DNA of 64,000 nt from positions 186,001-250,000 of the forward strand of contig NW_003314373.1 in the NCBI RefSeq assembly GCF_000143415.4. The letters are read 5' to 3'. The notes beneath the pieces were generated by a model. The model worked only from the letters and a program-made list of their open reading frames with translations, ran no database searches and was not told where the DNA came from. Origin of the DNA: Selaginella moellendorffii. Its lineage: Eukaryota; Plantae; Lycopodiophyta. Positions within the stretch are counted from its first letter, which is position 1; every line of letters starts with the position of its first letter. A program made the position numbers and the translations under genes. This document shows, one piece after another, positions 4,669 to 60,543 of this stretch.

Positions 4669-5737
4669 TTAAGGCCACGTTGTAAACTCGAAAACTTTGG
4701 CGACGATCTCGAGTCCTGTGGGGATTTGCGACGCAAAGAGGAGGAGATTTGCAACGTTGAGCGCGATGTGAAGATTTCTGGCGGTCTCGTTGCCCTTTTG
4801 CATCGCCGGGACGAGCGAGGCGGCGAGAGCCCACAGCACAGTGATCGCTGCGAAGAGAAAACGAGGAAGGAAAATCGATCGATCAAATGGCAGTGTGCTT
4901 AGACGAGAGAAGCTTACCAGCGCCGCTAAACAAATGAGGCCCCGGGAAGAGCTTCCCAGAGCGAAACCACGTATTGACGCAGCCACCCACGGCTTCGGTC
5001 ACTCCAAATCCCAGGAGGATGGATCCAGCGTTGAAATGCCTGTCGCGAAATCCACCCTTGACGAGTTCTTTCCTTACCTGGAATTGGAAAGCAACAAGAA
5101 ACCAACCAAGTCAGAAAGAAAAAAAGCGACAACCATAGAAATCCAAGGCTTGATGTCACTGTTACGTACCTCGGTGAGTTTCTCGATCTTTCGCTCGATC
5201 TCCGAGGGCGGAGAGTTCTCCTCTCGGGGCTTGACTTGCTTCTTGAGCTCCGTGACCTCCGCTTGGATGGTTCTCACTTGTCTCCATTGCCACCCCAAGT
5301 AGCCAGCCCAGATCGTGTAGGCAAACAATCCTCCCATGACGATCGGGTGAAGTAGAGCGAACGAGCGTCCTTCCAGGATGCCAAATTGTCCATCCACAGC
5401 CAAAGCAGCCTAGGAAGCAAAAAAGCTCTCCAAGTTAGAACGAACCAAGAACAAAGATGGAAGGCTAATCTCTCGAGAACTTCCAAGGAATTCTTACCTC
5501 TGGAAGGAAGAGCACGGGAGCAGCGGTCGCGGCCGACGAGACGATCGACCACCAGCATCGTCCACTTGAGAACAAATCCCTGTTGTGTTCTTGGCGTTCT
5601 TGGCGATCGGCACGATCAATCCCCTGCCCCGCATTCCCGCTGCCGCCATACCTGCATTGAATCCCACGCCGTGGACATCGCCCCAGCCCGCGAGGAGGAA
5701 GCACCAAGAGTAGCGAGCCGCCGCTCAACACCGCCAT
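4669..5737 (-). CDS. Plastid membrane protein, DUF4079-like (At3g61870-like), multi-exon
   Basis: Exon peptides AVDGQFGILEGRSFALLHPIVMGGLFAYTIWAGYLGWQWR and ...QIPTGLEIVAKVFEFTTWP*. Transit-peptide-like first exon from ATG 5737. GT-AG introns. Family assigned from recalled similarity. Confidence 0.75.
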
Positions 5738-27119: not shown

Positions 27120-28324
27120 TTTCTCTCGAATCGAAACCGATGGATTCACGCGAGCGAGATGCGAGCTAATCCAATCGCCCAATCAATCCCGCTTGGCAAA
27201 ATGCGAGAGAGAGAGAGAGAGAGAATCCTTCCTCCAGTGGAAGAGCCACACACACACGCACACAAGCACACACACTCGAGATATCTATTATCTATATTTC
27301 GGAGAATCGCGTATAGCCCTGGAAACACGAAGCTGACGAGCTCTTGAGCCCCGACTCACACGACAAACAAAAGCGCGAGAGAGAAAAAAAAAATTCCTTT
27401 TTTCCTCTTGTGTGTAAAATAGGGCAACAAAACAAGCCAGAAATATTGTCACGGGGATGACCGGCTGGAACCGGTCACTGGCCTTCCGTACCGGTAAAGA
27501 GACCGGCACTGCCGGTTGGCGAGGAGGGCCGAGCATGCGGCGCACGTGGCGGGGGGCCTCATGTAAATCGCGCTCGCGCTTTTGTCCAATCCCAACCGTT
27601 GAGGATGGATCGGACGGCTGGGGCCGGCCGCTGGCGGCGAATCGCGGCCGTCGAGTTGCCCGCTAAGCACGAGTTTAAGCGGCGGTACTTAAGTACTAAA
27701 GCGCGAGCCCATGTCTTGGGAGCTTTGGAATAAAGGGGAGCTCTTTTCTGTGCCTTATTTTTTTTGCCTTGCGTCCCAGCGATCGATCGTCGGGGGGACT
27801 CGTGCGAGCAAGCAACGTGCTGTGCGCGAAAGAGCAAAAAAAAAAAAAAACCAAAAAAAGGTGAGTGGATTCAACATTGGAAGAAGCGAATTTAGTACTC
27901 TACTTCCAAATGCGCGTGTATGTGTGTGTGTGTGTCTCTCCTGGCACAAACTATCAATCCAAGTTGTCTATAGATTAGGGCTTAGGGTTTTGAAGTTAGG
28001 ATTTAGGGTATAAGAGCCCTATCCCATAAGCCCAAGAGAAACTAAAACCTCCAACATATAATGTCCTTGAGGGAATTGTTGCCTTTGGTGGAGAAAGCAG
28101 CGCTTCGGTCCATTAGGGCTGAGTGAAAGTCCCCGAGCTCGGTGCTTTTGACACCAAATGGCAGAGAGTGCCACCTCGAAAGAGGAGAAGCCCGGTTGAG
28201 GCCACTGTGGTGTCTCGCCATGGCCGGGTTAGCTGGCTATAGTCCCAGTAATGCGCTTACACACGCGTGTACAACAGAACGGGGCTTACTATCTCCACCA
28301 AATCTTTTTTACGATTGTGTTCTA

Positions 28325-41821: not shown

Positions 41822-41920
41822 AGAAGCTCTGCATGGCTCCCCGCACGCCAGCTAGGAATCCTGCCGAAACACTTCGGTGGGCTTCTCAGGTGGCATACAG
41901 GGAGCCAGGCAGGGATTGTT
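41822..41920 (-). ncRNA. MIR160: MIR160 precursor hairpin (mature miR160 41911-41891; star arm 41850-41830)
   Basis: Minus strand contains the canonical UGCCUGGCUCCCUGUAUGCCA, which pairs with downstream UGGCGUGCGGGGAGCCAUGCA (one mismatch, G:U pairs) across a ~40-nt loop region. Confidence 0.95.
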
Positions 41921-49722: not shown

Positions 49723-50649
49723 TTAATAAAGAATCCTCATAGAATCTAAAAAAAAATCACTTTCATAAATATGCATATAAAAAATATTTATAAAAATGGT
49801 AGCTTAAGTACTGTGAGGTCCAAGTGTACAACTACGATGCTATATACTAATATTAACGTAGTAGGATTTTGGTAACTGTTGGATTGATTTTAATCCGGAC
49901 CACTCACTTTTGTATATAAGCTAGAGTTTTTGCGCTAATTGATATACACATTGCCTTTTCCATATTCCAAGCACTCACATTGGTAGAAGTGAGAGGCACC
50001 TTTCATTGTCCCTGAGGAGTGCTTGGATTTGGGATTTTAATTTAGATTTAGCTTTTTCCATTTCCATTTTTTGATTTTTCCTTTCAGATATTTAGTTTTT
50101 CTATTGTTTAAATCTCCCTTTCCTCCTAATGTTTTCTCATTTTCCTTCTTTTGCTTTTTTTCCTTTCTATTCATCTTCATGGCAAAGTAGTAGTCTTTGT
50201 GAGACACAAAATCCCTAGGCCCCAAAGTGGAGCCGGAAAGGGTGCCACATGGTAGTGGCCGAAGCGAAAGCCAAACGAGCGTAACACGTTTGGACTAAAA
50301 ACTCCGACTTGGAAGGTCAAGTGGGAGTGGAACTCCCAACAAAGTGCTTGAGGAGCGAGCACGAGGCAACCAACAAGCAAGGCTCCAAAAAAGGACCCAA
50401 AAAGGACCAACACATGACACGTGGAAATGTCTGAGATGGAGTCCGAGATGGACCCGAAATGGAATCCGAGACGGAGTCCAAGATGGACCTGAAGTGGAGT
50501 CCGAAATGGAGTCTGAGATGGACCCGAGATGGACCCAAGATAGAGTCCGAGATGGAGTGTAAGGAACCAACTCGCCGAGGTGTCGTAGGCTAAGGGAACC
50601 CCGAAAGCATGACCAAAATGACAAAGAGTTCATCGGATGGGACCAAGTC

Positions 50650-50920
50650 AAAGATCGAGTCCAAGACCGACTCTAGGACCGAGTTCGAGATAGAGTCCGG
50701 AATCGAGTCCAAGACCGACTCGGGGACCGAGTTCGAGTCCGAGTTCGAGACCGAGTTCGAGACGGAGTCCGAGATCCGAAATCGGGTCTGAGACCGAGTC
50801 CGAAGTCGAGTCCGAGGTTGGGCCCGAGATCGGGTCCGAGATCGAGTCCGCGATCGAGTCCGAGACCGAATCCGAAGTCGGATCCGAAATCGGATCCGAG
50901 ATCGAGCCAGAGACTAAGTC
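50650..50920 (+). repeat. GAGTCC/GAGACC/GAGATC hexamer array within the LTRs (also 57035-57290, 50435-50557, 58076-58160)
   Basis: Direct reading; the LTRs differ by one 12-nt unit here. Confidence 0.9.
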
Positions 50921-51765
50921 CAAATACTAATACGGGTCAAGGGGTGAAAGCCCAAAGCGTGCGTCCCCCAGGGGGGGGGGGCTGCAGGGGGTTCCAAAAG
51001 TATAGTAGGGATAGTGAGGTCCAGGAACCAGTTTAGAAGGGACTCTCCAGTGGGGCTCCCAAACTGACTTGAGGTTGGGACTGGGACCGAGGGGCCTTGG
51101 GTGGGAGTGAGCATGGACTTGGTTGGTGCCGGAGGGGCCATCCAAGGAAGTGCTCAAGAGCAGCTCCCACTCCCGAAAGGGAAACCGATTGCGGTGCTCC
51201 CGGCTCATGTGGAGTGGTGCCCCACTTGAGTACCATGTGGCTCATTGGTCCTCGCCCTTCCTAGGGGCTTGGGCCTTCCTTCGGGATGGAAGTGGGGGGC
51301 GAGAGGTACCCATGCCGGGCCGTTAGGCCACGGTGTTTCGCCCCGGCGTCCCGAAGCAAGTGTTGCACTCAAGACTTGGGATTTAGAGGGTCCCATGATC
51401 AAGTCTTGTGGTACCAAGGGATGTTAGGAACCTGGAAGCTTGGTGTGCTTGGCTGCTTGTGCTTGCGGGGAGTGTAGCCGAACCTTAAGTCCAGTCTAAC
51501 CCGGGGAGGGGGATTGGGAGTGATTTGGGGAATCCGTGGAAGGATGGCTAACGCTCCATTGCTCGTGCAGTGAGTAGCTGAAACCAAGTAGGAGCTGGTA
51601 CCATAGGCGAGAACCTTGGCAAGGGAACTTAGCAAAAGCCAAGGCAGTGTTGGACGGATAGACGAGGTAAGCTGGCAAATTGGAAAGGAAAAATTTGTGG
51701 CTTACAATTTGGTATCGGAGCCTTTATCTCAGTTCTAGCGAAGGATAGAGGCGGATTGCTGGGAG

Positions 51766-54700
51766 ATGGCAAGGGCAGGGCGTAAGCGAACCCAGGCGGA
51801 GACGGAACCTCCGCCGGAGCTGGAGCCTCTGGTTGAACAAGAGGCTATGGATGAGGAATCCTTGCATGAGGGGGACTCCAGTGAGGAAACTTCCAAACAG
51901 GAGTCCGGTGGCGAGGTTCGGTCGTCCAAGGCTCGATTGGACGTGCTAGAAGGACAGTTGGCACAGACCAATGCCCTGCTGGAGACTCTCGTACGCGAGT
52001 TAAAGCGTGACGAGAAGCGGAAGAAAAAGCGAAAGACTGCGGATGCTGGCAGCGCAGAAGGTGCGGACCCTTCGGCAGGGACTGAGGCAAAACCAGACAA
52101 GGTCGAACAGACCGAAGTGGAATCAGTCCCTCAGGCAGTTCCCAAGTACAAACCAAAGCCCCCACCGGTGTTCAAGGGAGTGAACGACTATAAGGTTGTG
52201 GAGGATTGGTTTTACGATATGGAGGACTACTTCCGAGCATTGCGGTTACCGAGCTCGGAGAAGGTCCCATGTGCAAAACCATACTTGGCAGATAATGCCA
52301 AGTCTTGGTGGAGAACAACGGAGGCCAACGAAGGACCGGTGGCCACCTGGGACATGATGAAGGCGAGGATCCGCGCGACATACGTTCCTCCGAATGCCAC
52401 TCTGCATCTGAGAGATGAGTTGAGTAGGCTGAAGCAAACTGGAACCATCCAGGAATATGTGAATGGGTTCATGGCAAAGAGGATACTTGTCACGGACATG
52501 GGGGATATGGATGCGTTCCATGCCTTTATATCAGGTTTGCAAACCTGGGCTCGCGGTGAGGTGATGCGCTGGAACCCGACCAACTACAAGGAAGCGTTGG
52601 ATGCGGCCATCAAGGTGCATTTCAACGATAACCTGCGAAAGGGGAACACGACGGGGTCGGGATCCACGTTTCACAAAGGGGCCAAACCGAGGGGAACATA
52701 TAGCAAGGGGAAATTCAAGAAGAGTTTCTCTAAGAATGAGTCCTCGGGGTTCCGGAAAGGCAAAGCCGGTGGCCAGCGAGCGAGTACGTGGGGAAGTCAA
52801 GCGAAAAAAGACAAACCCACGGATAAGAAGGTCAAGTCGTATAGCAGCGTGGGCAACAACGTATGCTATAACTGCGGCGAAGCGGGACACTTCTCGAGGG
52901 AATGTCCCTACCCGAAGAAGGCCAGAGCCAATATGGCCATCAAGTCGGGTGAAGTCCAAACTGAGGTATGTGATCCAGTCCCTAACTCAAAGTTACTCAT
53001 TACACGAGCAACTTTGGTAGAGAGTCGTTCGCGACATCTACTAGCCCTCCGAGGGAAGCTCGGAGGTAGCTTTGTTAAGATCCTTATTGACACGGGTGCT
53101 TCGGATAATTTTGTGGCTGCAGACATAGTCCGGCAAGCCGGACTAACGGTGCAGCGGCTAGGCGAACCAAGGACTATAGAGTTTGTTCAAGGTAGCCAAA
53201 GCACCGATGAGGTACTTCGACAAGCGAGAGTCGAAGTGGGGACATGGAAAGTGGACATGGATTTCACCGTCTTGGACATGGCGGGATTTGACGTGATCTT
53301 CGGAATGGATTGGTTTAATCGGTTCGTGGTAGCCCTACATGGACAAGGTAGGAACCTTGTGGTATTGGCGAATGCCCAAGGAAGAAGATCTAGGGTGGAA
53401 GCCCAGGATCTAAAGGTAGGGCAAAGCAAGGCCAAAGAGTCATGCTTAAACCTGGTGTCCACGAGAGGACAACTCACTAAAGGAACTAAGGCAGCCTTTT
53501 TGTGCTTACTCTCGGTGAAGAGTGACAAAAAGACAAGAACGGAAGAAGTACCTTTAGTGATCCAGCAGGTGCTGGACCAATTCCAGGATACGATGCCGGA
53601 GGAGCTACCGGCGGGGTTGCCCCCCGCACGACCGATAGAACATAAGATTGAGCTGGTCGAGGGTGCTGAGGCGGTGGTTCGTCCACCCTATCGATTGAAC
53701 GAAAAAGAACTCAAGGAGCTCAAGAGCCAACTAGAGGAGTTGGTGGACAAAGGGTATGTTAGGTTGAGCAAGTCGCCGTATGGGGCGCCGGTGCTATTTG
53801 TGAAAAAGAAAGATGGATCTATGCGCATGTGCATAGACTACCGGTTGCTCAACAAGTATACCAAGAAGAACAAGTACCCTTTGCCAAGGATCGAGGACCT
53901 GTTCGATAGGTTGGGAAAGGCAAAATACTTCTCGAGGATTGACCTAAGGTCAGGATACTACCAGATCAGGGTAGCTGAGGAAGATGTCGAGAAGACAACC
54001 TGTCGAACGAGGTATGGGAGCTTTGAGTTTTTGGTGATGCCCTTTGGGCTGTGCAATGCGCCGGCAACGTTTTCGGCGTTGATGAACCACATCTTTGTAC
54101 CCTATCTGGATCGCTTCGTGGTCGTCTATATTGACGACATCCTGATCTATAGCGAGACGCTAGAGGAGCATGCCGAACACTTGGCGAAGGTGTTTGAGAA
54201 ACTAAGGGAACACAAACTGTATGCTAAAGAGAGCAAATGTGACTTTGCTCAACAAGAGGTAAAGTTTCTCGGGCATGTGGTGGGCCAGGACGGGCTCAAG
54301 GTGGACCCGGAGAAGGTCCAAGCGATCCAGGAATGGGAACGACCATCGAATGTACATGAGTTGAGGGCGTTCCTGGGGCTATGCAACTACTATCGAAAGT
54401 TTATCAGACACTATTCGAGAGTAGCCCTGCCCTTAACGGACCAAACAGGAAAAGGGAAGATGGTATGGACAACGGAATGCGAGGCAGCATTCGTCCACCT
54501 CAAAGGGAAGTTGAGGAAGGCTTCGGTGTTGGCCTTACCAGACTTTGGTAAAGACTTTGAGGTAGACACGGATGCTTCGGACTTTGCGTTGGGCGCGGTT
54601 TTGAAGCAAGACAACCATCCAGTAGCGTTCTTCTCGAAGAAGCTGGACAAGGCTCAACGGAAGTGGCCTGCCCACGAGAAGGAATTGTTTGCGGTGGTCA

Positions 54701-56537
54701 AGGCGCTCAAGGAGTGGCGACACTACCTTGGGAGACACTTCAAGGTTTACACGGACAATGTGGCAACGAAACACTTCTTGTCACAGCCCGACCTAAGGGG
54801 AAAACAAGGTCGGTGGGCCAATGCCTTGGCCGAGTTTGATTGCGAGATCCTGTACAAGCCTGGGAAGAGCAACATCCTGGCAGATGCGCTCAGTCGAAAA
54901 GCGAGCTTGAAGTTGGCGATATCTAGCGCGACAGCAACCTTTTGGGACGATGTGCGGACCGCATACGAGAGTGATGGTCTAGCACGAGAAGTGTTGCTGA
55001 GGAATCTGGAGGCGCGGGAAGCTCACCAGAGAGGTGAGCTGCCAACGGAAGAGAAAACGGGCTATGCGGAACGCAACGGACTCATATATTACAAGTAAAC
55101 GAGGGTGTATGTTCCAGAAGGGGAACTAAGGAAGGTAGCCTTGGAAGAGTGTCATGACGGACCTCTTGCGGGACACGGCGGAGTGCCCAAGACGATGGGC
55201 TTACTCAAAAGGAAGTATCACTGGCCAGATATGGCTAAGGATGTCCAAGACTATGTAAGACATGTCCAACATGTCAGCAGGTCAAAGCCGTGACGAAGGC
55301 TAGTGGGGGCTTGTTGCAAAGCATCCCCATTCCAGATCGTCCGTGGAAATGTCTCACGATGGACTTCATCACGGGACTACCCCCAAGCGAGGGGTTCGAT
55401 GCGATATTTGTGGTGGTGGACCGATTTTCAAAGATGGCACATTTCATACCCACCACAACGGATGTGGATGCGGAAGGTGTGGCGAAGCTGTTCTTCGAAC
55501 AAGTGGTTCGAGTGCGGGGAAGGCCGGAAGAGATTATCTCAGATCGAGATAAGATCTTCACCAGTAGGTTCTGGAGGACACTCCTAGAACAGTATCGCAC
55601 CAAGTTGAAATTCAGCACGGCCTATCACCCACAGACAGGTAATGGGTATTGAGTCAAGATTGATGGCACTAACACTTCTTGACAGACGGACAAACGGAAA
55701 GGGTGAATAGACAGCTGGAGGATTATTTGCGATGCTATGTCTCGGGAGACCAGACCGACTGGGTAAGTCATTTGGGACTTGCGGAAATGTGTTATAACAA
55801 CTCACCACATTCGAGCATCGGGGTGAGTCCATGGGAAGTCATCAATGGGCGAGCTATTGAAGGTCCTGTGGAACTCGGCGTGGCCGAGTATCATGGAGAG
55901 TTACCCGCAGTGGAGGCATTCACAGCGGAAAGACTCAACATTTGGAATCTAGTGAGGGATTCCTTGGAACGGGCTCAACAAAGGCAAACTAAGTACGCGA
56001 ACCAAAAGCGTCGAGATGTGGAGTTCCAAGCTGGGGAGAAGGTGTGGCTGAACACCAAGAACCTCAGGCTACCAAGTGGGATCAGCCGGAAGTTGACCCA
56101 AAGGTAAAAATGCATGTATTCCTGTAAATGAATTGATCTTGAGTTCCTTAAGCAGGTTCGCGGGGCCTTACGAGATTGAGGCTCGAATCGGTAAAGTGGC
56201 TTACCGTCTCCGACTTCCTCGAGAGATGGGGAAGATGCACCCCGTGTTCCACGTGAACTTACTCAAGCCGTATTTTGAGGATCCGCTTCGCAAGGACCAA
56301 GTAAGACCTTTACCTGAGGTTATCCAAGGGGAGGAGGAATACGAAGTCGAGGCCATCCTCAATGCGCGCAAGAGCAAGCGACAAGGACGCGAGGTGAGAG
56401 AGTTCCATGTGAAGTGGAAAGGATTTCCACACTGCGAAGCAACATGGGAACCGGAGGAGAACCTAGCGAACGTGCGAGATCTAGTGGAGGAATTTCTGCA
56501 TGGCAGAACTCTATGTACTTATGCAAAGTTCAATTAA
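51766..56537 (+). CDS. Gag-Pol polyprotein (Gag, CCHC knuckle, protease, RT, RNase H, integrase, chromodomain), interrupted by predicted introns; this copy also has a stop and a frameshift
   Basis: [62 protein letters not shown]|GQTER, R|FAGPY, chromodomain YEVEAIL...[19 protein letters not shown] at 55096-55098; 1-nt deletion ~55258. Confidence 0.95.
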
Positions 56538-58080
56538 AAGTATCAATTTGAGAAGTTGAGCAATGGCATATGTTGGGACCCGAAGGCGCGCCGAAGGTGA
56601 GCTAATTAGCATGGGTTAGCTAGGTCAACCAGGCGTAGGGAGCTACGCCCGACTCCCTGCGGGGATGTCGAATCCGTAGACGTATTCTACGGAGGTTGGG
56701 TTTGAGTCCCAACCCCCTAGTAAAGCAAGGCTGGGTTCAAGTCCCGACCCCATACTAGGGCGTGGTGAGGGGTGGAGTATAGGGACACCTATATTCCGTT
56801 GTCATGAGCTCTTGGCCGGGGAGGCTAACTTAGGCACACCGCTAAGTGGGGGGATGCCCCCGGAGACATGGTCAACAAGTCGTAGGATAAAAAAGAGACG
56901 TTCGATGTGGGCATCGAACTTCTTCTATGGGTGGTGGAGTTGTAAGGAACCAACTCGCCGAGGTGTCGTAGGCTAAGGGAACCCCGAAAGCATGACCAAA
57001 ATGACAAAGAGTTCATCGGATGGGACCAAGTCAAAGATCGAGTCCAAGACCGACTCTAGGACCGAGTTCGAGATAGAGTCCGGAATCGAGTCCAAGACCG
57101 ACTCGGGGACCGAGTTCGAGTCCGAGTTCGAGACGGAGTCCGAGATCCGAAATCGGGTCTGAGACCGAGTCCGAAGTCGAGTCCGAGGTCGGGCCCGAGA
57201 TCGGGTCCGAGATCGAGTCCGCGATCGAGTCCGAGACCGAATCCGAAGTCGGATCCGAAATCGGATCCGAGATCGAGCCAGAGACTAAGTCCAAATACTA
57301 ATACGGGTCAAGGGGTGAAAGCCCAAAGCGTGCGTCCCCCAGGGGGGGGGGCTGCAGGGGGTTCCAAAAGTATAGTAGGGATAGTGAGGTCCAGGAACCA
57401 GTTTAGAAGGGACTCTCCAGTGGGGCTCCCAAACTGACTTGAGGTTGGGACTGGGACCGAGGGGCCTTGGGTGGGAGTGAGCATGGACTTGGTTGGTGCC
57501 GGAGGGGCCATCCAAGGAAGTGCTCAAGAGCAGCTCCCACTCCCGAAAGGGAAACCGATTGCGGTGCTCCCGGCTCATGTGGAGTGGTGCCCCACTTGAG
57601 TACCATGCGGCTCATTGGTCCTCGCCCTTCCTAGGGGCTTGGGCCTTCCTTCGGGATGGAAGTGGGGGGCGAGAGGTACCCATGCCGGGCCGTTAGGCCA
57701 CGGTGTTTCGCCCCGGCGTCCCGAAGCAAGTGTTGCACTCAAGACTTGGGATTTAGAGGGTCCCATGATCAAGTCTTGTGGTACCAAGGGATGTTAGGAA
57801 CCTGGAAGCTTGGTGTGCTTGGCTGCTTGTGCTTGCGGGGAGTGTAGCCGAACCTTAAGTCCAGTCTAACCCGGGGAGGGGGATTGGGAGTGATTTGGGA
57901 ATCCGTGGAAGGATGGCTAACGCTCCATTGCTCGTGCAGTGAGTAGCTGAAACCAAGTAGGAGCTGGTACCATAGGCGAGAACCTTGGCAAGGGAACTTA
58001 GCAAAAGCCAAGGCAATGTTGGACGGATAGACGAGGTAAGCTGGCAAATTGGAAAGGAAAAATTTGTGGCTTACATGGAG

Positions 58081-58116
<36 letters not shown>

Positions 58117-60543
58117 TCCGAGTCCGAGTCCGAAATCGGGACCGAGACCGAATCCGAGTCCAAATATTAATACAGGCAGTTGGGTGAAAACCCAAAGCAA
58201 TCCCCCCGGGGGGGGGGGGGGGGGGGGTGGCAGGGGTTTCCAAAAAGCCTAATAAGGAAAATGTGGGGGTTTGGAGCCTAGTGGAGCCAGTTTGGCCAGG
58301 AAAGGCCAGTTTGGCCTAAAAAGGCCATGCCCAGTGTTGGGTGATGAATTGACTACTAAGAAGTCCAAGACTAGAGTGAATACGGACCGACAAACGGGGT
58401 AGCTTGGCGAAGTGTTCAAAAGCTGGCTCTAGTTCCCCCGGAAGATTGACTGGCTGATGCTCTCAGTCCAAGTGTGGGTGGCACTACCTACTTGGATACC
58501 TCGCGTGGCTCAACGGAACCTTGCTCTAAGCCCATGGCTAGAGCACCCAAAGGCGGAAGGCGGGGAGAGTACCCATGAGGCCCGCGTAGGGCCACGGTGT
58601 TCCGAAATGTTGTCCCAAAGGCCTAGATTGTGGAAAGGAAGAGGAGTAGCCCTCTGGTGTGGTGACCAAGGATACAGTCAGGTGGTGAGGAAGTCCCAAA
58701 GGACCGTGGGACTTAGTGGTCGGGCCTGTGGGCCTCAATCCAGTGGTAGTGTTGGCGAACATGGCTATGGGTAGAAAGGGACTTGGTGGGGAATGGAAAA
58801 AGGATATTGGGGAAGGCTCTTCCCCATGTCTGTGGGCATCCTATGGATGCTAAGGAGTGGATCTAGGATGATCACTCATGGATGGATGGCCCAGTCTTTG
58901 ATAGACGGGACCGTGATGTAGGTGGTGTCAAACCACCAGGTGACCAAGGTGAATGGGCATAGCCTTAGCATAACGGGCTGATGTGTCGGTGGTACCTTGA
59001 GGTGTTGGTTGTGGGATCAGACACGTGGAGCACTTAAACCAAGTGCAATGGTTGAGTGGCATGGATGCCATTCTTGGGGCTAGCAAGTCCCTAAGTCCAA
59101 AATGGGACTTACGGAGGTTGTGAGTGAGACTCCTCCAAGTGGTCGGAGGTGTGGTTAAGTGACTAAACTAAAATGGAAAATTTAGTCGCTTACAGTCTTC
59201 TCCTCTAACTCTAGAGCAGCAATTAGTGCAATTGCTTGATGCTATGCGATTGCAATTGAACAATCAAACTCAATTGATGGCGGCATTCACGGCATGTGAT
59301 ATAGCTCCTCCTGCTCTTGGTGCCAATCCTCGCGTTTGGTTAGAGTTCTTTCATGGGAATCCTAGGAATGATGTGTACTATTGGTTCGATCACTTCACAG
59401 TGATTGCCACCTATCATTCTTGGGATGATGCTTGACGTTTACGTGAGTTTCCCACATGGCACTGCAATGGTACAATGGTTTGAGTGTAGCCACTCATGGG
59501 GACTAGAGTGTTCTCTTCAAATGCATATTTGGACATGTTAACGATTGTGATGATACCTTCCAACAATTGTATCATCTTTGTTAAGAGCCATCTAAGTCGC
59601 TGATACAAGTTTCCAAAACCTTTTATTTTGTGTAGAGCTAAATTTGTCAAAACGGATCAAGTTAGGAATGTTATGGCCAACACTTTGTCAAGATTTTGTC
59701 GGACTTGTGTATGCACTTGCTCCAACCACCCGTGACAATGCTTTTCGTTTGGCACAATGTTATAAGACATCACTTCTTCAACTTTTTGCTACACGTCCTT
59801 CCACTCCACTTCTTGTGGGCGATGGTCCTATTCTAATGGAAGTTGATGCTGCTGCTACTCAAGTCCAAGGACAAGGGCGAGGTTGTGGTCATGGCCGAGC
59901 ATAGCGCAAATCTTCATTTCTGGCACACTCCCTCACCAGCCCTGCCTATGGTGTTGCTCACGCACTGCGCAGAAGTGAGTTGATCCTGAAAGGAGCCTGG
60001 ATTGTATGCCCGACTACCATTCTACTTGCCCTTGTTATCCTTGTGAGCACCTCCTCTAGGAGCTTACAAACGCACAGACTCTCACGGGAATGCCCACACA
60101 ACCACATCTGAGCAGAGCAGCAATGGAGCCGTGCATGGCATAACACCTATCGCCACACCCTCTTTCCTTCCCGGCCACACATGCATCTTACCCATTGGCC
60201 GCCACAACATTAAGTTGATATTCCCACTAACCATGGCCACCAGCCCTGGCCCGGGCCTGGGGTGGCCTCCCCTTCCCAAGAACCATGGCTTCCAAAGCTG
60301 CCCCAAGCCTAGGATCGGACGGCTGGATCCTATTGGGCCCTTCGTTCTTATTATTATAGATAAATAGATAGATATTTACACTTGTGATGTTGTGTGTGGA
60401 CACGCACATCCAGCTGACGCACCACATTGTAATCTTACACGTTTAAAACACGAGCGGCCAGCTGGAAATACAGAGCTGCATGAGTAAATGTGCGCCTGGA
60501 TCAAGTTTCGCATTACTACGATCTATAGCAAGAAGAGTGTAGT

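Follow-up and report, generated by a model that had tools for sequence, protein, structure and literature searches.

A candidate cis-acting hairpin upstream of the polypurine tract and a duplicated T-arm in the 3′ UTR of a Selaginella chromovirus

Introduction

Why should the 3′ end of a plant retrotransposon fold into a row of back-to-back hairpins, two of which carry loops like those of tRNA T-arms? The question is raised by positions 56590 to 56925 of the window (the whole stretch of 64,000 nt of Selaginella moellendorffii DNA analysed here), for which an original prediction had listed eight stems and, as candidate roles, RNA export, packaging, protection from NMD, tRNA mimicry or TFIIIC binding. 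It bears on two wider problems, both presented as open in the accessible text of the papers concerned: how the polypurine tract (PPT) is chosen as the sole plus-strand primer (PMC3185511) and how helpers recognize short non-autonomous elements (PMC10886601).

Results

A young chromovirus around the hairpins

The hairpin-rich stretch is, as predicted, the structured 3′ UTR (56538-56940) of an LTR retrotransposon, between the integrase stop codon and the PPT. The full-length element spans 50558-58075 and comprises the following parts.

50558..51706, + strand: 5′ LTR (TG...CA); its alignment with the 3′ LTR has 3 mismatches and 14 gap columns
51710..51721, + strand: primer-binding site (PBS) of what we take to be the initiator-Met type, its 12 nt identical to the start of the internal part of Helenus-1_SMo
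51739..56537, + strand: gag-pol of a chromovirus, with the final stop at 56535-56537
56920..56940, + strand: pyrimidine-rich spacer and polypurine tract, the PPT proper being 56929-56939
56941..58075, + strand: 3′ LTR, followed by TGGAG at 58076-58080

The 5-bp target-site duplication TGGAG (50553-50557 on the left) flanks the element on both sides and, together with the few differences between the LTRs (compared over about 1,140 nt), indicates a young insertion. Pfam matches follow in the order gag, zinc knuckle, protease, RT, RNase H, integrase, SH3-like domain and chromodomain; the gag-pol of this copy is interrupted by an in-frame stop (55096-55098) and, near 55260, by a frame break. With this domain order and its C-terminal chromodomain, paired LTRs, PBS, PPT and target-site duplication, the element is a Ty3/gypsy chromovirus. 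The family is young and high-copy (62,824 and 1,061 contigs matched in the DNA runs X1 and X4, respectively).

No entry of the protein collection exceeds 63% identity to the RT-RNase H region. Its closest matches (58-63% identity) are single-ORF plant polyproteins of 1,500-1,540 aa, presumably Galadriel-like. A quick tree, built without named Galadriel or Galahad references, unites it with them at 96% SH-aLRT and places the element on a long branch. The Tcn1 clade was considered and rejected: SM-Tcn1, as far as the accessible text of PMC2864245 describes it, has two ORFs, 440-bp LTRs and no tRNA PBS, whereas the present element has a tRNA-type PBS and 1.1-kb LTRs.

The element sits within a solo-LTR-like copy of a sister family (50198-50557 and 58081-59194, flanked by GTCTT). 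Its U3 carries a repeat array with a 12-nt period (50640-50935 and 57011-57320), within which B-box matches occur (three in the 5′ LTR and two in the 3′ LTR). A neighboring GRAS protein has its best full-length non-self matches in Diphasiastrum, which, like the PBS shared with Helenus-1_SMo, points to a probable lycophyte host. Elsewhere in the window, Rfam matches are found for RNase MRP (28084-28301, + strand) and MIR160 (41827-41914, − strand).

Fold of the 3′ UTR

All eight stems are present in the sequence where they had been placed, and the expectation of an unusually stable fold is borne out: the 336-nt region has a folding energy of −150.1 kcal/mol against −117.2 ± 4.7 for dinucleotide shuffles (z −7.04), and none of 100 shuffles is as stable. 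Among the 22 non-overlapping 336-nt tiles of the element, it has the lowest minimum free energy (MFE). Two other tiles, 50558-50893 in the U3 repeats (z −8.2) and 52910-53245 in the protease region (z −7.9; 12 shuffles each), reach equal z-scores, so that z alone does not single out the UTR. The folded parts are, from 5′ to 3′, as follows.

56632..56693, + strand: three adjacent stable hairpins with loops GGAG, TGCG and CGTAT (pair probability 0.97-1.00)
56694..56714, + strand: T-arm unit 1, with a 7-bp stem and a 7-nt loop that is a canonical T-loop/B-box in about 88% of depth
56715..56760, + strand: outer 8-bp stem, with T-arm unit 2 inside it (56729-56749, loop TTCAAGT), in competition with other folds
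56774..56876, + strand: 10-bp hairpin 56774-56797 and multibranch domain 56798-56876 (pair probability 0.90-1.00)
56900..56919, + strand: pre-PPT hairpin, with an 8-bp stem and a G-TGGG-C loop (motif G-NGGR-C), covarying across relatives

In the ensemble of 56560-56945, six stems are well defined (those starting at 56632, 56650, 56673, 56694, 56774 and 56900; mean pair probability 0.86-1.00). The stem 56600-56621 is weak (0.06-0.23) and reaches 0.82 once five sites at which this copy differs from most others are barred from pairing. The outer stem CCCTAGTA/TACTAGGG with T-arm 2 has a probability of 0.01-0.2 in the full fold (0.02-0.2 for T-arm 2) and, in a separate fold of 56673-56765, of 0.7-0.9 (0.74 for T-arm 2); the penalty for forcing it is 1.8 kcal/mol, in an energy model that gives no bonus for T-loop tertiary contacts. 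Between the UTR and the rest of the element, the longest complementarity is 11 nt, which is at chance level by a rough expectation. Rfam gives no match to the UTR at gathering score, two chance-level matches at E ≤ 10, and none in four relatives. Two palindromes, GGCGCGCC (56585-56592) and GCTAATTAGC (56601-56610), lie at the start of the UTR array and are possible dimerization sites.

T-arm hairpins and variation within the family

The likeness of both 7-nt loops to the T-loop/B-box is borne out. For loop 1, the form TTTGAGT is indeed that of this copy, but it is a minority variant that differs from the canonical T-loop by a CpG-type change: C at 56703, in about 88% of depth, makes the loop canonical in most copies. 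Loop 2 has no common variant. The second T-stem exists as well, but it is longer than the three pairs claimed for it (56729-56749, with one wobble and one mismatch). Hairpins with a TTYRANY loop and at least three Watson–Crick pairs number four on both strands of the window, two of them in this UTR; among 20,000 shuffles of the 336 nt, one such hairpin occurs in 100 and two in none, a count in which the two T-arms, as duplicates of one unit, are not independent.

A T-arm with a TTCRANY loop is thus the tRNA-type feature that is present. An acceptor stem, a D-arm and a cloverleaf or L-shape are absent, and the assignment as a tRNA-like structure was rejected; ARAGORN finds no gene and Rfam no tRNA match at E ≤ 10, and a whole tRNA mimic is not supported.

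Variation in the family was read from the pooled contigs of X1 and X4 over 56540-56945, a site being counted as common when another letter reaches at least 8% of depth. There are 17 such sites, 12 in loops or linkers and 5 in named stems (15 stems covering 193 of 320 positions), and all 5 stem variants keep or restore the pair on the + strand. Not one of the 49 G that form G-C pairs has a G>A variant, against 4 of the 54 G elsewhere, a difference that is not significant (P = 0.12). Positions 56771 and 56773, counted as unpaired, pair in the MFE helix of this copy, which most copies would lack. The pre-PPT hairpin has no variant at this threshold. In the upstream stems, T-arms included, changes in the pooled contigs are one-sided only, with no two-sided covariation found; of the covariation anticipated for the array, the two-sided changes are those of the last hairpin.

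Pooled contigs also contain joints from 56721 to 56696 and from 56750 to 56722, which, with the likeness of the two units, make the T-arm a tandemly duplicated unit. Loose contig ends, pooled and linked by deduction, suggest a subfamily in which hairpin 56673 and the two T-arms stand between different flanks; others, likewise pooled and at raised depth, suggest that the last hairpin and the PPT, but not the upstream UTR, are common to this element and to the sister family of the same genome in whose solo-LTR-like copy it sits.

The T-arm hairpins are limited to this family group and were not found beyond close kin. We did not observe a T-arm (GTTCRANYC with at least three pairs) in 76,656 nt downstream of the chromodomains of 80 relatives (up to 1,500 nt each), for which the best blastn match to the UTR has an E of 0.32. 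In viral contigs, the double T-arm pattern occurs at 11 loci, 10 of which are near ARAGORN tRNA genes and none of which is, by eye, a retroelement UTR; protein scans of viral contigs gave no relative. The literature searched, which covers few subscription papers, holds no description of T-arms in a retroelement UTR.

The pre-PPT hairpin in distant relatives

Relatives were collected by an alignment search with the C-terminal part of the integrase, and the best 80 of 531 confirmed matches were kept (5 of 64 parts of a metagenome collection). A hairpin G-NRGR-C with at least five pairs is present in 43 of the 79 sequences with at least 80 nt downstream, the element itself included. These 43 fall within 43,253 nt of downstream sequence, against 22 in 167,245 nt upstream, and nearly all downstream hairpins are followed, by eye, by a purine tract and TG.

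Because pairing was part of that rule, sites were reselected in a non-circular manner by motif and PPT only. Four further pairs form in 29 of 35 such distinct sites but in 6 of 224 upstream control hexamers, and when the arms of different sites are swapped, 128 of 812 combinations still pair. A second collection, of 41 loci from genome contigs, includes 31 with 120 nt or more of downstream sequence, and 10 of these have the motif; among 9 distinct sites, 5 are strictly paired and 3 more have one mismatch (by eye). These 41 eukaryotic retrotransposon-like contigs (L092-L132) lie in prokaryotic genome assemblies and are most likely contamination.

Alignment A3 combines both sets in 34 rows, omitting 9 of the 35 sites of the first (2 non-pairing and 7 near-duplicates) and 1 non-pairing site of the 9 of the second. 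In A3, 87.9% of 272 cells are paired, a figure flattered by the omission of non-pairing sites, against 31-40% in slid registers, and two-sided changes occur at 7 of 8 pairs. The covariation score is 0.858 versus 0.202 and is reached by none of 500 shuffles; count-type covariation measures are not above the shuffles (436 and 270 of 500). At 60% protein identity, the rows fall into 23 clusters (median identity 36%); 22 different 5-nt arms occur among them, and the inner six pairs are formed in 20-23 of the 23 clusters, so that relatedness does not explain the pairing. While the arms vary freely, the GG of the loop and the closing G-C are invariant. The distance from stem end to LTR has a median of 17 nt (10-24; n = 34) and that from the closing G is 26-34 nt, ranges imposed in part by the selection windows. 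The non-Watson–Crick cells comprise four A-C and one G-U.

By these sequence comparisons, the last hairpin is an ancient covarying module, with a G-NGGR-C loop and a variable stem, fixed just before the PPT. Searched with model R1, the window contains a single strong site, that used in training; the next (5195-5218, E 0.038) has no PPT after it. One family has two copies of hairpin plus PPT, at about +40 and about +790 past the chromodomain (a spacing of about 750 nt), with arms that differ and still pair (L034, L044, L051, L056, L057, L060, L067, L068, L080 and L083); the module seems to duplicate as a unit. A variant with a three-base loop, G-GGA-C, stands just before the PPT in L039, L128 and L129 (by eye).

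The hairpin in non-autonomous elements

The supplement of PMC10886601 on Helenus and Ajax TRIMs was searched with a single hexamer, gaggac, and 30 of the 31 places found were examined. Twenty of the 30 close the internal part, just ahead of the PPT; 17 of these have at least five perfect further pairs and 3 have one mismatch (by eye). The carriers, in bivalves, wasps and a nemertean, are short non-coding elements with internal parts of about 100 nt. Helenus-1_SMo and a fish Helenus, as given in that supplement, lack the hairpin by eye.

The word hairpin does not occur in the main text of PMC10886601. Rfam has no family for the pre-PPT hairpin, and no description was found in the literature searched, which comprised few subscription papers, no Repbase, and running text rather than figures and supplements, such as the PPT alignments in PMC10085805, PMC3605345 and PMC6317226 that possibly show it.

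Intron-like inserts and splice-like motifs

Three further features concern splicing.

55639..55685, + strand: 47-nt GT..AG insert in the integrase with a branch-point-like CTAAC, a predicted spliceosomal intron
56104..56155, + strand: 52-nt GT..AG insert in the integrase, a predicted spliceosomal intron
56597..56623, + strand: 5′-splice-site-like AG at 56597, followed by a branch-like CTAAT (56602) and an AG (56622-56623); the motifs overlap the stem 56600-56621

At both inserts the integrase of relatives runs on without a break, and most relatives checked lack them; DNA depth is level across them, and they are therefore family-wide. No description of these inserts turned up in the literature searched, which covers few subscription papers. 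If they are introns, the unspliced RNA must be the template. At the donor-like AG|GT of 56597, an A at 56599, nearer to the donor consensus, is found in 99% of depth. Two RNA runs (about 12% scanned) yielded 68 and 31 reads, which cover part of the UTR about 3 deep, too thinly for expression or splicing; nothing follows on either point from the lack of a spliced joint among the 15 joints listed or of a match to the RNA-type contigs X15 and X17. Both runs contain a spliced-looking or chimeric minus-strand transcript that overlaps a diverged copy's LTR and whose loose ends, identical in the two runs, are at 57544 and 57900. Acceptor-like and donor-like motifs in the LTR (51569 and 51667; 57939 and 58036) suggest leader splicing.

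Discussion

Role of the pre-PPT hairpin

Cis-acting structures at the PPT are already known, and the self-contained G-NGGR-C hairpin upstream of it is likely an overlooked copying signal. The original prediction had proposed a packaging signal among other roles; a cis-acting role in packaging or replication is still the best reading, with its strongest evidence on the last hairpin and not on the T-arms. We lean towards a hairpin that acts in cis on the genomic RNA, is read by the element's own RT or nucleocapsid (NC), and selects the plus-strand primer. During minus-strand synthesis, RT would copy past the PPT and then run into the stem, which lies some 17 nt upstream of the PPT/LTR junction. 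RNase H would be kept close to that junction either by a pause at the stem or by NC or RT binding to the invariant GG of the loop, and would in this way define the primer ends. The narrow spacing of the hairpin favors primer selection, although the selection windows impose it in part. By the strict rule, the hairpin is not universal (43 of 79 loci, and the motif in 10 of 31), and the A-C to G-U ratio of four to one leaves room for action as minus-strand DNA rather than RNA. The distance between polymerase and RNase H sites is about 18 in HIV-1. In Ty3, as given in the accessible text of PMC5371799, it is about 13 bp, short of the 17 nt, which speaks against a simple pause.

The close rival, itself rather unlikely, is that the hairpin serves Gag or NC as a packaging or dimerization signal with no primer role, its place beside the PPT reflecting no more than the invariable retention of that RNA end. 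Zinc knuckles bind G-rich tetraloops; an invariant GG loop and closing G-C on free arms point to a loop read by protein, and retention of the hairpin in short non-autonomous elements would suit packaging too. The accessible text of PMC11381356 reports that the Ty3 UTRs are needed for localization and packaging, but it maps dimerization to the 5′ end, and the tight spacing to the LTR, 26-34 nt when counted from the closing G, is not expected of a packaging signal, even if partly imposed by selection. Primer selection remains our preferred reading. Its wider form, that the G-NGGR-C hairpin is an undescribed essential cis-signal of Ty3/gypsy elements and of their non-autonomous parasites in plants and animals, giving a structural cue for primer selection, is put forward tentatively, as a proposal that may well fail.

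Role of the upstream array

The upstream array with its duplicated T-arm appears to be an RNA domain of younger date, specific to the family and selected for pairing. Its most likely contribution to the unspliced genomic RNA would be stability or a protein-binding surface, the T-loops acting as tertiary docking modules and not as parts of a tRNA. That the array is instead a hypervariable UTR grown by local duplications and tolerated, with no specific function beyond compactness, is unlikely. Its absence from the 80 distant relatives, the duplication joints, the other UTR of the sister family, the competing folds of T-arm 2 and the equal z-scores of other tiles all agree with such neutrality; yet a canonical T-loop on a 7-bp stem is improbable by chance, 5 of 5 stem variants keep pairing, and another subfamily, to judge from the loose ends, keeps hairpin 56673 with both T-arms. 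Pairing weighs likewise against the quite improbable view that the T-arms are B-boxes acting as DNA (a TFIIIC insulator, or a Pol III promoter decayed from a captured tRNA or SINE fragment) and that the stems are a by-product: the stems reach 7 bp where a B-box implies one pair, and common variants preserve them. Both loops do fit GTTCRANNC in most copies, the U3 repeats hold more B-box matches, and a tRNA-bearing TRIM is known in Selaginella (PMC10886601, accessible text). Of three A-box matches, those at 56612 and 56621 are loose and that at 56718 is stricter, but those at a fitting distance are the loose ones and the strict one is just 17 nt before its B-box; moreover, the + strand from 56500 to 58075 has no TTTT run, the flanks show by eye no similarity to Helenus-1_SMo, and the B-box motif alone is common (24 matches across the window). 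Cleavage of the UTR, as a tRNA-like structure by RNase P/Z or as a self-cleaving ribozyme, is scarcely credible. It could draw on the T-loop consensus and on a weak 5-bp stem (56620-56624/56716-56720, probability 0.07) that could stack on T-arm 1, but a cut here would part the PPT from the coding portion, ARAGORN finds nothing, and the UTR has neither a match to a tRNA or ribozyme family in Rfam at E ≤ 10 nor a hammerhead core.

The remaining alternative, that the array is an export or splicing-control element through which intron-retaining RNA leaves the nucleus and is copied, is also a distant prospect. It accords with the two family-wide GT..AG inserts, with the lack of the array in relatives lacking the inserts, and with splice-like motifs that overlap the first hairpin. 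Against it, the inserts are introns by prediction from sequence, and their correlation with the array rests on one lineage. A CTE in the strict sense is doubtful, since plants are stated not to use TAP/NXF1 (PMC12786077, accessible text) and Rfam has no export-element match; the original idea of a role for unspliced RNA survives at low odds through the inserts and the donor-like and branch-like motifs over the first hairpin. Equally doubtful is a joint scheme in which the hairpin is the shared essential cis-signal and is here coupled to the T-loop array and the donor, so that spliced integrase mRNA would lose or mask the signal and only intron-retaining RNA would be copied. If true, it would account for the survival of spliceosomal introns within the integrase of a high-copy LTR retrotransposon. 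For the array, we continue to favor the family-specific RNA domain.

According to the accessible text of PMC12786077, the intron-bearing LTR elements listed for plants are only Ogre and EVADE, and export of such unspliced RNA in plants has not been studied directly. The T-arm array with its intron-like inserts offers a test case of how plants choose unspliced RNA as a template. The hairpin, 20 nt long and covarying, gives a direct mutational handle on primer choice and on helper recognition, as well as a marker for annotating the 3′ ends of non-coding elements.

Comparison with known systems

The transport elements CTE, RTE and MusD are structured and lie near the 3′ end of a retroelement. The present array is likewise a structured 3′-end element, and the template RNA would be unspliced. 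It has no sequence or Rfam similarity to them, and their receptor NXF1 is stated to be unused in plants (PMC12786077, accessible text).

Among chromoviruses, the Galadriel clade and its sister Galahad, as far as the accessible parts of PMC2864245, PMC3605345 and PMC6317226 describe them, share with the element the domain order, the chromodomain upstream of the PPT, a Met-type PBS and the 5-bp target-site duplication; unlike them, the element has a structured UTR of 400 nt, LTRs of 1.1 kb and two intron-like inserts in the integrase.

With the Helenus, Ajax and Cassandra TRIMs, whose Pol III promoters derive from tRNA or 5S (PMC10886601, accessible parts), it has in common a tRNA-type B-box in an LTR element, and many of them share the pre-PPT hairpin. 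The tRNA part of the Helenus type is near-complete, with A and B boxes, and lies in the LTR, whereas here there is only a duplicated T-arm in the internal UTR of a coding element.

The pyrimidine-rich spacer before the PPT recalls the U-box/T-box and the TCTT motif, which have a role in plus-strand priming; those are linear motifs, with no hairpin described in the accessible text of PMC10085805. Closest in placement is the inverted repeat at the PPT of Pseudoviridae/Sirevirus, also a precisely placed structure with a proposed role in reverse transcription, in which the PPT lies in the loop and the right arm in the LTR (PMC2829016, accessible text). A systematic search for PPT hairpins like this type is called for in PMC3601003 (accessible text). 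The hairpin described here differs from the Pseudoviridae type in being self-contained and wholly upstream of the PPT, closing 21 nt before the LTR.
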